A stretch of 16,479 nucleotides of DNA from positions 1-16,479 of the forward strand of contig JBBDYC010000008.1 of the NCBI GenBank assembly GCA_040901985.1, given 5' to 3'. Positions 6,001-12,000 of this stretch are shown one piece after another. This DNA comes from Gemmatimonadaceae bacterium. GTDB taxonomy: Bacteria > Gemmatimonadota > Gemmatimonadetes > Gemmatimonadales > Gemmatimonadaceae. The stretch's first letter is position 1; the number at the start of each line of letters is the position of its first letter. Made by a program: the position numbers.

Positions 6001-9000
6001 GACGGTGCCGATCCCGGCGTCCTTCTGGTACTTCTGCGCAAAGGCGATGATCAGCGGGAAGTACTGCATCAGCGGGGCGATGATATTCGTCGTCGAGTCG
6101 CCGATGCGATACGCGCCCTGCGTCACCTCGGGGGCGAACCCCATCAGCATCAGCATCGGCACGAAGACCGGCGCCATTACCGCCCACTTGGCCGACGCCG
6201 AGCCCATGAAGAGGTTGATGAACGCGGAAACGACGATGAACGCGAGGAGGAGTGGGATGCCGGTGAATCCGACCGCCTTCAAGCCGTCGGCGCCCTGGAT
6301 GGCGAGGATGAGGCCGAGGTTGGACCAGTTGAAGTAGGCGACGAACTGCGCGGCGGCGAACGCAAGGACGATGTAGCTGCCGAGCACCGCCACGCTCTCC
6401 GACGACATCGCTGCGACGTCGCGGTCGGAGCGGATGGAGCCGGTGGTGCGGCCGTAGACGATCCCCATCACGAGGAAGAGGAGCATCAGGATCATCACGA
6501 GGCTGTCGAAGAACGGGCGCAGCTGGATGATGACGCGCTCCGCTGCCGCCTCGGGATTGCGGAGAACGGCGTGTTCCGGCACGGTGAGGGCGAGCATCAC
6601 GCCGATGCCGGCGAGCAGCACGAGGCCGGCGTTGCGAAGGCCGCGGCGCTCGGCGTCGGTGAGCGGATGCATCTCGTCGCCGGCGGCGACCGGGCCGCCC
6701 GGTGGGGGCCCGAGCCGCGGCTCGACGATCCGCGTCGTCACGATCGCCCCGACGACCGTGACGAGGAAGGTCGAGGCGATCATGAAGAAGTAGTTGCCCG
6801 TCACCTGCGCGTTGTAGGCGGGGTCCACCAGCTGCGCCGCCTGCGTGGTGAGGCCGGCGAGGAGAGGGTCGAGCGACGTGATGAGAAGGTTGGCGCTGAA
6901 CCCGCCCGAGACGCCGGCGAGTGCGGCGGCGAGTCCCGCCAGCGGATGCCGCCCGACGGCCTGGAAGAGCACCGCGCCGAGCGGGACCAGCACCACATAG
7001 CCGGCGTCCACCGCCATCGAACTCATCACGCCGGCAAAGACGACCGTCGCGGTCAGCAGCGACGGCGGGACCACGAGGAGGAGCCGCCGCAGCGCGGCGG
7101 TGATCAGCCCGCTGCGCTCCGTCACGCCGATCCCGATCACCACGACTATCACCAGGCCGAGCGGCGCGAAGCCGGTGAAGTTGCGGACGCCCTCGGTGAG
7201 CATCCGCCGCACGCCCTCGGCGGTCGCGAGGTCCACCGGCGTCACCGCCGCACCGGTGCCGGGATGAATGGCGCTCACCCCGAGCCGCGCGGTGAGCCAG
7301 GACAACGCCACCACGGTCAGCGCGAGGATCGCGAAGATCGTGATCGGGTCGGGGAGCTTGTTGCCGGCGCGTTCGACGCGGTCGAGCGAGCGGAGCAGCC
7401 AACTGCGGTGGGCAGTCACGCGCGGATCTCCTGTGGATGGACCGGAGGACCCGCGAAGATACGCCCCGGTGCTAGCGGCGCGCGAGCCTTTCCACGAAGA
7501 CCTTCCGCGCCTTTGACACCTTTGGCGCGACGACCACGGCGCAATACGGGTTCTGGGGATTCCGCGCGAAATAGTTGTCGTGCGCGCGCTCGGCAGGCCA
7601 GAACTTCTCCAGCGGCACGACCTCGGTGACGATCGGGTCGTCCCAGTGCGCCTGTGCGGCGGCCAGTCGCTCCGCGGCAGTCCGGGCCTGCTCGTCCGAG
7701 TGCGTGAAGATCACCGAGCGGTACTGCGGCCCCACGTCGTTCCCCTGACGGTCCTTGGTGGTCGGGTCGTGGATCGTGAAGAGCACGTCGAGCAGGTCGC
7801 CATAGCCGATCTCGGCCGGGTCAAAGCTGATCTGCACCACCTCGGCGTGACCGGTCTTCTTTCCGCAGACCTGCTCGTACGTCGGGTTGGCGACGTGGCC
7901 GCCGGCGTAGCCGCTCTTCACGCCCGTCACGCCGCGCAGCTCGAGGTACACCGCCTCGAGACACCAGAAGCACCCGCCGCCGAGCGTGGCGAGTTCGGTG
8001 CCGCCGCTCACTTGGCGTCCTCCTGCACAATCGTCGGGAAAAGCACGGCGTACTTTCCCAACCCCTCGGCCGTCAGCCGTGCGGCGGGGACGAACCGCAA
8101 TGCCGCCGAGTTGATGCAGAAGCGCAGCCCGCCGGGGCCCGGTCCGTCCTCGAAGACGTGGCCGAGATGCGAGTCACCCTGCGCCGAGCGCACCTCCACA
8201 CGGCGCATCCCGTACGCGTGGTCCGGGTGTTCGGCGACGTTCTCGTCCACGAGCGGCTTGGTGAAGGACGGCCATCCCGTGCCCGAGTCGAACTTGTCGG
8301 TCGAGGCAAAAAGCGGCTCGCCGGACACGACGTCCACGTAGATGCCGGGCTCCTTGTGATCCCAGAACTCGTTGCGGAACGCGGGCTCGGTGGCACTGCA
8401 CTGCGTGACCTGGTACTGCAGCGGCGTGAGGCGTTGCTCGAGCGCCGGGTCGGCGGGCTTCTTCTGCTTTGACATTTGCGTTTGGGCGTGGAGTACCTCC
8501 GAGGAATCGAGCCAGCGCCGCCCAAGTTCCGCAACCTTGACAATGCCGAACAAACACCGAACCATTGCCGGCTCGGCGCGAAGATCGCTCCAGCGCTCAC
8601 CCTGAAACCACTGACGCGGGCCTTGCGTTGTAAGCAAGTGGTCGCTTGCTTTGTGAAAGTATTCACTTGAACCTCCCATATGTCTGAACCGACCAAGCAG
8701 CAGCTCCTCGACGCCGCCGCGCGCGTCTACGCCGAGGCCGGATTCCGCGGGGCGACGACGCGCCGCATCGCCGACGAGGCTGGCGTGAACGAGGTGACCC
8801 TCTTTCGCCTCTTCGGCTCCAAGGATGCGCTCATCAAGGAAGCCATCCGCGAGCACGCGCGTAGCGGTCCGCCCGACGTCCTACCGGATGTGCCGGTGGA
8901 TCCGGTCCGCGAACTCACGGCGTGGGCCGAACAGGACCACGTCTTCCTCACCGAGTGCCGCGGGATGATTCGCACGGCAATGGCCGAGATGCACGAGCGG

Positions 9001-12000
9001 CCGGAGTGCGCCGGGTCCACCGCCGAGCAGCCCGCCGAGTCCATGCGCGCGCTCACCACCTACATCGAGCGACTGGCCGAGCACCGCTTCATCCCTTCGG
9101 CAGCGGACGCAAACGCCGCGGCCGCGATGCTGAAGGGCACGCTCTTTGCCGACGCAATGGGCCGCGACATGATGCCTGACTTGTTCCCGCCGGCGAAACG
9201 CGCGCCGGCGATCTACGTGCGCCTCTTCCTCCGTGCCCTCGGCGCCGCGTTGGCACTGCTCCTCCTGGTGCTGCCGCCCTCCGCCGTCGCGCAGGCGCAG
9301 ACTCCGTCGCAGGCGCAAGCGACGCCGACCGAGCTCTCGCTCGCCGAGGCGCTGCGGATCGCCGAGCGCCGCAACGCCGGTGTGCGGATCGCCGAAGCCG
9401 GCGCCGCGCGCGCACGCGGGTACCAGCGCGCCGCCGACTCCGGGCGCTTGCCGCAGGTGAACGGGTCCATCAGCTATCAGCGCGCGATCGAAAGCCAGTT
9501 CGCCGCGATCTCCGAGCGCTTCGCGCCCGACACCGGCAGCTCCGGCGGCGGAATCGAGGACTCGCCGCTGGCGCAGATCTTCGCGGCGCCGAACACCGCC
9601 GTGTTCCAGCTTTCGGCGACGCAGCATCTCTGGACCGCCGGCCGACTCGGCGCTGCACGCGCCGGCGCCAGCGCCGGCCGCGACGCGGCCAACATCGCCC
9701 TCGCCTCGGCGCGCGCGCAGGCCATCCTCGACGTTGCCGCGGCTTACTTTGACGCGGTGGCGATGGAGCGTCTGCAGGCAATCGCCGATTCGACCGTCGC
9801 CCTCACCGAGCGCACCCTCGCCCACGTCGAGCTCGCGCGCGAGGTTGGCACGGCGAGCGAGTTCGACCTCCTGCGCGCCCGCGTGGCGCGCGACAACCAG
9901 CGCCCGCTCGCCATCCAGGCGCGCGGCAACCGCACGGCGGCGCTCCTCCGTCTCAAGCAGCTCCTCGAACTCCCGCTCTCGGCGCCGCTCACCCTTACCA
10001 CGCCGATCCGGGATGACGACGCGCTCGTCGCCGAGACGATGGGCCCGATCCGGCTCGTGGACGACCGCACGATCACGCCCGACACGAGCGTCGCGGCGCG
10101 CGCAACGGTTCGTCAGGCGGAGGCGCAGGTAGAGGCGCGGGAGGCCGCGTTGCGTGCGGCTCGCCTGGCGCGGTTCCCCTCGCTCCAGCTGACCTCGACC
10201 TACCAACGCTTCGCCTATCCGCCCGACGGCACGTTCCTCCCCGGCGAGCTTGGCCTCTACTTCCCGAACTGGACGGTGTCGCTCGGCCTCGCCTTTCCCG
10301 TCTTCAGCGGCGGCCGCGTCAGCGGCGAGCGGATGGTGGCGGAGGCGGATCTCCTCGAGGCGCGCTCGCGGTTGCAGCAGACGCGCGACGGCGCCGAGCT
10401 CGACGCCCTCCTCGCGGTCACGCAACTCGAACAGGCGCAGGCGGCGTACCTCGCTTCGGTCGGCACCGACGCCCAGGCCGAGCAGGCGTATCGCATTGCC
10501 GAGGTCCGCTTCCGCGAGGGAATCTCGACGCCGGTCGAGTTGACCGAGTCGCGCGTCCAGCTCGAACAGGCGCGGCTGCAGCGCGTCACCACGGCGCGCG
10601 ACCTCGAGATCGCGAAGCTCCGGCTCGCCCTCCTGAAGGACCTGCCGCTCGCGCCGGAAGGGGTCCGCTGATGCGCTCGCCTGCCCGCGCGCTGACGCGC
10701 GCGCCACGTCTCGCCGCGTCGTCCACTGATTGCTCGACCGTTCCGACCGTTCCGACCGTTCCGACCGTTCCACCCCCTACGCCCAAGTCCCGAGGGAAGC
10801 TCCCGATGTCGTCTCGCATTGTTCGTTCCGCCGGTCTCGCCTCCCTCGCGTTCACGCTCTCGATTGCCGCCTGCGGTCGCGGTGACGCTGCCGAGGATGC
10901 CGCGGCGGCGGCGGCCCCGGTGGTTGTCGCTGTCGGTCCGGAGGCGATCACCGTCGCCGAGGTCACGACGCTCGCGACTGGGCCGATCCTCTCGGGCACC
11001 TTGGTGGCCGAGCGGACGGCGCAGATCCGCGCCGAAGTGCCGGGCTCGGTCATCCAGGTCTTCCGGGACCCAGGGGCGGTGGTCGCGCGCGGCACCTCGC
11101 TCGCCAAGATTGACGACCGGTCCATCAACGACGGCTACCTCTCGGCGCGCTCCGGCTACACCGCGGCCGAGACGTCGGCCGACATTGCCCGGCGCGAGCT
11201 CGAGCGGGCCGAGAAGCTGCAGGCGGCCGGCGCGATCTCCGACCGCGACCTCGAGAACGCGCGACGCGCGAACCTCGCCGCCGGCTCGATGCTCGACGAC
11301 GCCCGCGCGCGGCTCTCGTCGGCGCAGAAGCAACTCGACGCGACCAACGTGCTGGCGCCGTACGACGGAGTCGTCAGCGAGCGCTACGTGAACCCGGGAG
11401 ACGTGGTCGCGCCGGGCTCGCCGCTCTTCACGGTGGTGGACCCGGCGACGATGCGGCTCGAGGCGACGGTGCCGGCGAGCGAGCTCGCGGCAATCCGCGT
11501 CGGCGCGCCGGTCCGCTTCTCGGTGACCGGCTATCCGGGGCGGACATTCGAGGGCCGCATCTCGAGCATCAACCCGTCAGCCGACCCGCAGACGCGGCAG
11601 GTGCGGCTCTTCGTCCGCATCCCAAACGCGGGGAACAGCCTGGTCGCCGGCCTCTTCGCCGAGGGACGCGTGGCAAGCGACGCCCGCGCGACGCTCACCG
11701 TGCCGCGGCTGGCGGTGGACCTCCGCGGGCTCACGCCGGTGGTGCTCCGCGTGCGCAACGGCACCACCGAGCGCGTAGAGGTTGTCCTTGGCGCGCAGGA
11801 CGAGGCCAGTGAGCGCGTGGAGATCACTGCCGGCATCGTGGCGGGCGACACGCTGCTCGTCGGCGCGGCGCTCGGCATCACGGCCGGCACCCCAATCCGC
11901 GTGAGCGCGCCGGCCGACGTGCCGGCGCGCAACTGACCAGGAGCCGCGCCCGTGTTCATCTCTGACTTTGCGATCAAGCGGCCGCTGATCACCGTCGTCT

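Follow-up and report, generated by a model that had tools for sequence, protein, structure and literature searches.

Textbooks describe the repressors of efflux pumps as soluble proteins of the cytoplasm and outer-membrane channels as substrates with an N-terminal signal peptide. Among the local regulators of RND efflux operons, the TetR-family repressors AcrR, TtgR, MexL, NalC and SmeT are each a free, soluble protein of ~190-220 amino acids, with a stop codon of its own and a gene that is usually transcribed divergently. Membrane-bound one-component regulators of the ToxR/CadC type are built from a winged-helix domain, a transmembrane helix that is stable and a sensor in the periplasm; they are not known to be cut by signal peptidase. 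Among bacterial polyproteins cut at an internal signal peptide is the cytochrome b-c1 precursor FbcH of Bradyrhizobium, whose two halves both belong to a single complex, as membrane or periplasmic components. The Escherichia coli genes infB, clpB and cheA yield long and short forms of the same protein through internal initiation, the second start being often GTG.

The locus described here lies in a window of 16,479 nucleotides, the whole stretch of DNA analysed, taken from contig JBBDYC010000008.1 of a Gemmatimonadaceae bacterium. Positions 8680..10671 of the forward strand form a single open reading frame of 663 amino acids with zero internal stops, whose ATG sits three codons past the preceding stop. 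Within this frame a complete TetR repressor is followed by a predicted Sec signal peptide and by a TolC-type channel. The fused gene is the first of an operon, and its stop codon (TGA, 10669-10671) shares one base with the ATG of a gene for a periplasmic adaptor of the HlyD/MFP family (10671..11936, forward strand; Pfam HlyD_D23, E 7.9e-33, and HlyD_3, E 2.9e-27). The gene for an RND inner-membrane pump of the AcrB family comes next (11952..15107, forward strand; ACR_tran, E 3.2e-258, profile positions 1-1020 of 1021), so that the channel has directly 3' the two partners with which outer membrane factors share operons. The source databases annotate these genes simply as 'TolC family protein', and no paper describing a TetR-signal peptide-channel fusion was found in the literature.

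The likeness to AcrR and its relatives comprises the N-terminal helix-turn-helix (HTH), the all-helical ligand domain, the palindromic operator beside the pump operon and a presumed autoregulation; in contrast to them, the repressor here has no stop of its own, and its chain runs on into an exported protein. As in FbcH, one frame would give two mature proteins, with the cleavage site predicted at a Sec signal peptide buried between them; in the present case, however, one of the two is a transcription factor of the cytoplasm. As in infB, clpB and cheA, two products would come from one frame with the aid of a second, here candidate, start codon; however, the shorter of them would be an exported protein of another kind, and the residues shared by repressor and signal peptide appear to serve two unrelated roles. 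An uncut long form would have the topology of ToxR/CadC regulators, with a DNA-binding domain in the cytoplasm at the N-terminal end, a single hydrophobic span and, at the C-terminal end, a part that lies beyond the cytoplasm, although the fold is that of TetR, the span is a short signal peptide predicted to be cleavable and the outside part is an outer-membrane channel.

The single frame reported in the survey's finding is real and genus-wide. The gene is present in 52 of the 55 genomes of the genus, which comprises uncultured Gemmatimonadales bacteria. From 53 genus loci fetched, 51 (from 50 genomes) reach the junction, and every one of them is open from TetR via the signal peptide into the channel, without a stop for the TetR part; three further metagenome loci are equally open. 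Of 305 database relatives, the best 120 share 63-72% identity, come from many independent assemblies and all carry PF00440 together with PF02321. Indels at the junction are all in frame, and no conserved off-frame stop that would allow termination by frameshift was found. Judging from this comparison of sequences, the open frame is more than an accident of high GC.

The repressor module covers amino acids 1-192 (8680..9255, forward strand, without stop codon) and was delimited by Pfam, an AF2 model, Foldseek and dN/dS. Its HTH occupies residues 9-55 (8704-8844, forward strand; TetR_N, PF00440, E 3.6e-14, above the gathering score). In the AF2 model, with pLDDT 75-91 across residues 1-189, nine helices are seen (6-24, 27-34, 38-45, 48-60, 75-92, 94-102, 108-134, 144-161 and 175-187), the last of which, α9, corresponds to positions 9202-9240 of the forward strand. 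The TetR structures matched by Foldseek were MexL (8wrf), FrrA (6g8h) and 2np5, with E values of ~5e-5 to 1e-4; NalC was a further structure match among the known TetR repressors of RND efflux. The model and the matches conform to the all-helical, two-domain fold of about nine helices that defines the family. A member would also be expected to be a free soluble protein of ~190-230 amino acids with its own stop, and here no stop occurs before codon 664. The dN/dS value of the TetR part is 0.28 and that of the HTH 0.16, compared with 0.29 for the channel, and among 53 sequences the HTH residues are invariant, residues 25-48 mostly so. By these substitution ratios the repressor part is under purifying selection.

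Upstream of the gene a palindrome, AAGCAAG-N6-CTTGCTT (8632..8651, unstranded), is the presumed TetR binding site. Of 52 genus loci, 51 have its strict core, GCAAG-N6-CTTGC, ahead of the gene. In the 2.64 Mb genome this core has only four matches, one of them at 8634-8649; a relaxed pattern occurs in two or more copies in 37 of the 52 loci. By sequence, the repressor has a palindromic operator at its own promoter, as is usual for the family. The operator lies between the TetR ATG and a promoter-like site, TGAAAC-N17-CGTT (8603..8629, forward strand), a candidate of the ECF-sigma type, whose consensus we presume it to follow; the pattern [TG]GAAAC-N15-19-CGT[TCA] is present inside the 130 nt upstream of tetR in 31 of the 52 loci. 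No sigma-70-like site was found in 8300-9400. A second inverted repeat, TGTGA-N6-TCACT (8652..8667, unstranded), resembles CRP/FNR sites, and GTGAA-N4-6-TTCAC is found at the same place in 14 of the 52 loci.

A stop lost by assembly or sequencing error, or a non-functional TetR remnant in front of a channel gene, might be suspected in a metagenome-assembled draft of 19 contigs with a GC content of 69%, where long frames arise by chance, such as the 630-amino-acid one on the opposite strand. The survey had held an assembly error to be unlikely, and the open frame in the 51 loci and in the best 120 database clusters bears this out. The in-frame indels, the selected TetR part with its invariant HTH and the conserved operator speak equally against error and decay, an explanation that is exceedingly improbable and is refuted as far as the comparative data reach. 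Since the TetR part is selected and its operator is kept upstream, TetR must be presumed to be made, and since it has no stop, the long fusion would be synthesised whenever TetR is made.

The mature outer-membrane factor comprises amino acids 205-663 plus the stop codon (9292..10671, forward strand). It shows the two OEP repeats and the TolC fold of such channels: Pfam OEP (PF02321) matches it in two stretches (E 1.9e-43, the best being 472-652), and Foldseek relates it to TolC, OprM, CusC and SilC, with E values of ~1e-14 to 1e-15 and TM scores (target) of 0.63-0.74. Ahead of it a signal peptide of the Sec (SPase I) type is predicted at residues 180-204 (9217..9291, forward strand), with an n-region VRLFLR, an h-region A186-L198 (9235-9273) and a c-region PPSAVA, all read from the sequence. 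These three regions are present and conserved, with an A-x-A|Q motif at the predicted A204|Q205 site; the junction, with the predicted cut marked by a bar, reads ...APAIYVRLFLRALGAALALLLLVLPPSAVA|QAQT. P199, A204 and Q205 do not vary among 53 sequences, while the hydrophobic core is variable in sequence. Cleavage after A204 is more likely than the cut after 'AQA' proposed earlier, the pair A204-Q205 being invariant. At or near the cleavage site there is no lipobox Cys; therefore the signal is not that of a lipoprotein, and by sequence the channel is placed with the TolC-like non-lipoprotein channels, outside the OprM/NodT lipoprotein subclass. The peptide is N-terminal only given a start at V180; in the product as annotated it lies buried, as in a polyprotein, flanked within the single frame by two modules that are both complete and under selection.

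Where the survey had seen two modules joined by a signal peptide, there is no linker: the last helix of the repressor is itself the n-region. In the AF2 model α9 runs directly into the hydrophobic core, and pLDDT falls below 50 across residues 190-214. Residues V180-A189, on the evidence of model and alignment, serve both as the end of the last TetR helix and as the charged n-region of the signal peptide, and it is this doubling of a TetR helix as a positively charged signal-peptide start that is new here. Operons of other Gemmatimonadales in which tetR is split from tolC-adaptor-RND (such as L012, L013, L022, L028, L111 and the 13 split loci of a second genus) have the same gene order. Their TetR is orthologous to the fused one (45-55% identical, with the same ...YVRLFLRxIG... 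last helix), aligns with it up to residue ~190 and, after a basic tail, reaches its stop codon 8-30 residues past the helix. Their channel has its own signal peptide ending in A-x-A|Q, as in the fusion, and its own ATG or GTG, which overlaps the stop (ATGA) off-frame or directly follows a single in-frame stop. In the fusion, on the contrary, tail, stop, separate start codon and separate n-region are all gone. Two relatives that the survey had counted as open, with frames of 800 and 774 amino acids, are probably stopped: G007 and G010, with the same frame lengths, hold TetR and channel in the same frame with one stop codon between them, and the 'open_frame_aa' column is misleading for frames of this type. 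As two functions overlap in one frame and a stop would destroy the signal peptide, a stop can no longer be inserted, and the conservation of the open frame may therefore be lock-in rather than advantage.

The channel had also been proposed to start at Met164/165. An internal start is indeed indicated, the likeliest being GTG at V180 (9217..9219, forward strand) and not only the two methionines (ATG ATG, 9169..9174, forward strand). In 46 of 51 genus loci the V180 codon, from which M-RLFLRALGA... would be read, is GTG, a codon that makes up 43% of the 1,658 other Val codons in these genes; GTG stands at this position in 8 of 15 split homologues. R181, which follows, is encoded by the rare CGA in 32 of 41 and is the strongest codon-usage outlier of 485 columns; for comparison, codons 6, 3 and 5 of the true start have ranks 2, 4 and 9. 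Codons 166-181 show a dip in GC3 (z -3.7), and RNA folding is weak at codons 168-172, just upstream of V180. Locus L095, which lost the GTG, has an ATG two codons earlier. The start-site signal at V180 is suggestive and not unique, as far as codon statistics go: the window of synonymous conservation at 180-187 is only 6th among the 7-column windows scanned, GC3 dips at codons 30-40 as well, and folding is equally weak at codons 524-527 and 271. Before GTG 9217 no Shine-Dalgarno motif was found; use of this motif looks weak across the genome. GTG and CGA could also reflect inheritance or another role at the nucleotide level. Nearly all of 53 sequences (at least 90%) have M165, and the codon choice of P166 is unusual (G 61, rank 8 of 485), but M165 is also common among split TetRs and its conservation may be structural; V180, too, is conserved for TetR structure. 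On balance, a second initiation in this genus at GTG 9217, less likely at ATG 9172, giving an ordinary channel precursor, is rather probable.

Since the codon evidence points to an internal start, a fixed 1:1 ratio of repressor to channel, as in the survey's boldest reading, is unlikely in this genus. It would follow from an obligatory polyprotein, in which internal initiation is absent and all channel is cut by signal peptidase from the 663-residue precursor. The invariant A-x-A|Q site and the GTG without Shine-Dalgarno motif agree with such an arrangement, as does the second genus; but the GTG enrichment, the CGA outlier, the GC3 dip and the weak upstream folding are specific to the present genus and start-like, and pairing a trimeric channel 1:1 with a low-copy dimeric repressor would be an odd economy. 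For this genus we consider the obligatory polyprotein quite unlikely. In the second, sister genus, 13 public loci are fused, and 13 loci are split. The fused ones have M165 in 13 of 13 and no conserved start between it and the hydrophobic core, three of them lacking any, so that the downstream protein is there without an internal start; their junction has no GC3 dip, and the channel is nevertheless conserved. By sequence these independent fusions, which keep the channel, favour true polyprotein processing in the sister genus and make such processing plausible. Fusion arose at least twice on the tree; further fused clusters exist, and its recurrence in several lineages suggests an arrangement that is easily reached and either tolerated or useful.

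The opposite extreme would be nested genes, with translation from the internal start (GTG 9217 or ATG 9172) as the sole source of channel. The TetR-channel chain would then be a harmless by-product that is not exported, TetR would act in the cytoplasm as a soluble repressor with its unfolded C-terminal extension trimmed or tolerated, and the frame would be open only because a stop would destroy the signal peptide. The codon signals at GTG 9217 suit this explanation, the overlap of α9 with the n-region leaves no space for a stop, and relatives parted by a single stop or an ATGA overlap indicate that one mutation suffices for fusion. However, fusions recur and, in the second genus, keep an intact channel without a conserved internal start. 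Moreover, a Leu-rich hydrophobic core leaving the ribosome behind a folded domain is the usual signal for Sec/SRP insertion, as in type II membrane proteins. We regard nested genes as rather unlikely.

The explanation that we prefer combines one frame, two modules sharing a segment and two products, the long one inserted by Sec and cut; taken as a whole, it has an even chance of being correct. Ribosomes starting at ATG 8680 could not terminate after TetR and would, with high confidence, produce the 663-residue TetR-signal-channel chain. Its buried signal peptide would enter the Sec translocon with the N-terminus in and the C-terminus out, ToxR/CadC-like, signal peptidase I would cut after A204 and the freed channel would proceed to the outer membrane. 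TetR would keep a hydrophobic tail of ~19 residues, either staying attached to the inner membrane by it or becoming free once the tail is degraded, and its dimers would repress the operon at GCAAG-N6-CTTGC. That insertion, cut and repression by the tailed TetR all take place is slightly favoured by the sequence evidence. Initiation at GTG 9217 would supply ordinary channel precursor in addition, uncoupling the amount of channel from that of repressor. What the survey had read as one polypeptide cut by signal peptidase stands as regards synthesis of the fusion, and its cleavage is plausible. The hydrophobic core of 13 residues is short for a stable membrane anchor, and the long form might never leave the cytoplasm or might be degraded. 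No RNA run was found to contain the locus.

A bolder version, in which TetR physiologically derives from the long form, seems unlikely. In it each TetR would be born in the Sec translocon with a channel subunit, be cut by signal peptidase and become a tail-anchored inner-membrane dimer or be released in a regulated way, coupling repression to channel export. If this were true, feedback would be coupled to export: with the envelope jammed, TetR would go unprocessed and the operon would be derepressed. All channel of the sister genus, which has no internal start, would come from the polyprotein in a fixed ratio. The locus offers a natural test case for the handling by Sec and signal peptidase of a signal peptide behind a folded domain, and a possible transcription factor whose maturation or location would depend on protein export. 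One peptide segment would fill two unrelated roles, as repressor helix and as signal-peptide n-region. For annotation it is a warning, since a regulator is hidden under the name 'TolC family protein' and the operon appears to be unregulated.

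The gene at 8680-10671 (+) is a single tetR-channel reading frame of 663 codons without internal stops, whose ATG lies three codons past the preceding stop. In the product Pfam places TetR_N at residues 9-55 (E 3.6e-14) and OEP in two stretches (E 1.9e-43). The AlphaFold2 model, built on 53 relatives (mean pLDDT 81.5), contains a complete nine-helix TetR, with its last helix at residues 175-187, then a low-confidence stretch at 190-214 and a TolC-like body at 217-657. Foldseek matched the N-terminal part to TetR structures, e.g. MexL and FrrA, and the channel to TolC, OprM, CusC and SilC (E ~1e-14 to 1e-15). 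No Cys follows the signal peptide in the junction sequences read; hence, the channel is TolC-like and a lipoprotein is excluded. The channel-gene stop is overlapped by the start of an HlyD-type adaptor gene (10671-11936), followed by that of an AcrB-type RND pump (11952-15107). The efflux operon is flanked by envelope and oxidative-stress genes: upstream and divergent lie msrB-msrA, encoding methionine sulfoxide reductases (7472-8440, -), beside an AbgT transporter gene also on the opposite strand, and downstream lies a gene for an LTXXQ (Spy/CpxP-like) periplasmic protein (15108-15857, -). In two database products, P0177 (945 aa) and P0201 (636 aa), the OEP part continues into HlyD adaptor domains, the former also reaching the start of an AcrB pump; read-through in gene calling or additional fusions may explain them.

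At a genomic GC content of 69%, long ORFs arise by chance (one of 630 aa runs on the opposite strand), so that the open frame by itself proves little and comparison must decide. The gene was found in 52 of 55 genomes of the window's genus. Fifty-three loci were fetched, and in all 51 that cover the junction (50 genomes) TetR, signal peptide and channel follow each other in frame. Three metagenome loci belonging to this clade also have fused junctions; the scan that yielded them, queried with a single TetR protein, returned only four loci. Moreover, both Pfam domains are present in each of the best 120 of 305 matches in a 5.8-billion-protein collection, which are 63-72% identical and derive from many assemblies, and their junctions vary by in-frame indels only. 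These results bear out the survey's finding that repressor and channel share one open frame, and artefact or decay as the origin of that frame is extremely improbable. Later frame breaks within the channel part were seen in two loci, L009 (genome G055, about 2268-2289) and L102 (genome G184), whose TetR frames have 365 and 465 aa; either draft-assembly error or channel decay would account for them. Genome G197 has two contig pieces, L062 and L108, each spanning a fused junction, which suggests that the gene is duplicated or the bin mixed (contamination about 4%).

Alignment with split TetR homologues of other genera reaches residue ~190, and these proteins end 8-30 residues further on in a basic tail. 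In the genus, the last helix, APAIYVRLFLRAL, directly abuts the hydrophobic core, ALGAALALLLLVL, with nothing between; V180-A189 end the repressor and at the same time form the signal peptide's positively charged n-region. Among the database relatives the junction retains YVRLFLR-x-x-G-A, then a Leu-rich core of variable sequence, a Pro and A-x-A-Q, and P199, A204 and Q205 are invariant across 53 sequences. The invariant A204-Q205 pair suggests that the cut falls at A-V-A|Q, two residues earlier than first proposed. The residue following the predicted site is Gln in 53/53 (window 9289-9294, columns A204/Q205), and in relatives with split genes the channel signal peptide likewise ends A|Q. This Gln calls to mind the 'Q-rule' described for substrates of signal peptidase I in Bacteroidetes (PMC5837995, whose abstract and one further passage do not mention Gemmatimonadetes).

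The repressor part is under purifying selection: pairwise NG86 dN/dS (200 pairs drawn among 42 full-length genes) is 0.28 in TetR and 0.16 in the HTH, compared with 0.29 in the channel and 0.44 in the junction. In 51 of 52 genus loci a candidate operator, a palindrome with GCAAG-N6-CTTGC as its core, precedes the ATG by 15-60 nt, and 37 loci have at least two copies by a relaxed pattern; strict matches number four in the 2.64-Mb genome, one of them at 8634-8649. Selection together with the conserved palindrome indicates that TetR is translated and selected. Since it has no stop of its own, it can be tightly inferred that each TetR started at the ATG at 8680 is born as a 663-aa chain. Among sequencing runs, the locus was listed for no RNA run and for a single DNA run, which may come from the source sample. 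A programmed frameshift ending TetR was considered and rejected as an unlikely escape, because off-frame stops after the last helix are unconserved: past Y179 the first stop comes from 1 codon onwards in the +1 frame (median 51) and from 27 in the +2 frame (median 210).

Whether the channel is also made alone was approached through codon usage, which makes an internal start at V180 in the window's genus the somewhat more probable case. The V180 codon is GTG in 46 of 51 loci, as against 43% of 1,658 other Val codons of the same genes and 8 of 15 split homologues with the same helix (one of these controls, L017, being from the unpublished genome G077); L095, a genus locus without the GTG, has an ATG two codons earlier. 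When every conserved column was compared with gene-wide codon usage, R181 was the strongest outlier of 485, with the rare CGA in 32/41 against 7% gene-wide, while codons 6, 3 and 5, just past the true start, ranked 2nd, 4th and 9th; all tested columns share one phylogeny. Codons ending in A or T are expected just after a start in a GC-rich genome. Codons 166-181 show a GC3 dip (z -3.7, the third-deepest after codons 1-12 and 30-40), and RNA folding is weak near codons 168-172. Such regional signals around V180 are not unique in the gene, and a sliding window of synonymous conservation, which ranked region 180-187 only 6th, was not discriminating, the per-column test being sharper. No Shine-Dalgarno motif precedes the V180 GTG; its enrichment is weak genome-wide, as judged by a noisy heuristic that takes the first start of long high-GC3 ORFs. 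Initiation at V180 would yield M-RLFLRALGA..., a textbook signal peptide; an alternative internal start would be M165, which precedes an unusual P166 codon.

The fusion recurs in a sister genus, where the gene is present in 27 of 30 genomes, 14 loci being fused (one, L088, from the unpublished genome G221, also a row of the tree) and 13 split; the conclusions hold without L088 and the codon control L017. The split TetRs end ...RRRAS-stop, the channel start overlapping as ATGA in another frame, whereas the fused loci have a basic linker of 15-25 residues, e.g. ...GRRRALLAG.... In the 13 public fused loci neither a conserved start codon from M165 to the hydrophobic core nor a GC3 dip at the junction was found, and three of them have no start at all between M165 and the cleavage site. 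Hence, in the sister genus the long chain (or initiation at M165) would be almost the only source of channel, which makes it plausible that Sec inserts such a precursor and signal peptidase cleaves it. An obligatory polyprotein would agree with the sister genus; for the window's gene, with the codon signals at V180, it is quite doubtful.

In a FastTree phylogeny of TetR plus channel (58 rows, the window's genus thinned to every fourth locus) that genus forms a fused clade with 100% support, split forms lie between it and the second genus, and at least two changes between fused and split states are forced, the minimum count being three. From the 150 best matches of a 1.84-billion-protein search, 14 representatives that were long or multi-stretch were chosen; three contain both domains, one of them with a different TetR C-domain type. 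In other genera TetR and channel are in frame with each other and a single stop separates them, so that the mutational path to fusion is short. Five such loci, L028 (genome G007), L111 (G010), L112 (G112), L018 (G094) and L020 (G064), were reported by the search tool as open frames of 774-862 aa; translated, each stops after about 205-220 aa. The open-frame length column misreports these loci and reliance on it overcounts fusions. It probably misled the survey on the '800-aa' and '774-aa' frames, two of its three open relatives, for genomes with such lengths have the stop.

The reading we favour, at about even confidence, is that one frame gives two products, the long form being Sec-inserted and cut after A204. 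The TetR-channel chain would be inserted by Sec, the predicted cut would follow A204, and the severed TetR would keep a ~19-residue hydrophobic tail, to be membrane-held or later freed. Alternatively, the long form would be an unexported by-product, with the frame kept open simply because no stop could be placed without loss of the signal peptide; this is unlikely, though credible, beside the sister-genus loci and their probable dependence on the long chain.

A full-text literature search, judged mainly on abstracts, did not yield an account of any TetR-outer-membrane-factor fusion or membrane-anchored TetR, and 'fbcH' did not occur among its best-ranked matches; public names of these proteins are 'TolC family protein' or 'outer membrane protein'. 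ToxR/CadC, FbcH and infB-type nested genes may serve as comparisons. The present analysis contributes the overlap of helix and n-region, the candidate operator, the count across the genus, a corrected comparative count, and the codon signals that point to an internal start in the window's genus and are missing from the sister genus.

Between operator and ATG lies a second inverted repeat, TGTGA-N6-TCACT (8652-8667), resembling a CRP/FNR site; in 14 of 52 genus loci such a repeat stands where other loci have a second operator copy. No sigma-70 promoter was found in a scan of 8300-9400. Just upstream of the operator lies a candidate promoter, TGAAAC-N17-CGTT (8603-8629), and a similar pattern, [TG]GAAAC-N15-19-CGT, recurs at 31 of the 52 genus loci. 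The candidate resembles ECF-sigma promoters; if it is of this type, the operon would be under an envelope-stress sigma factor besides TetR.
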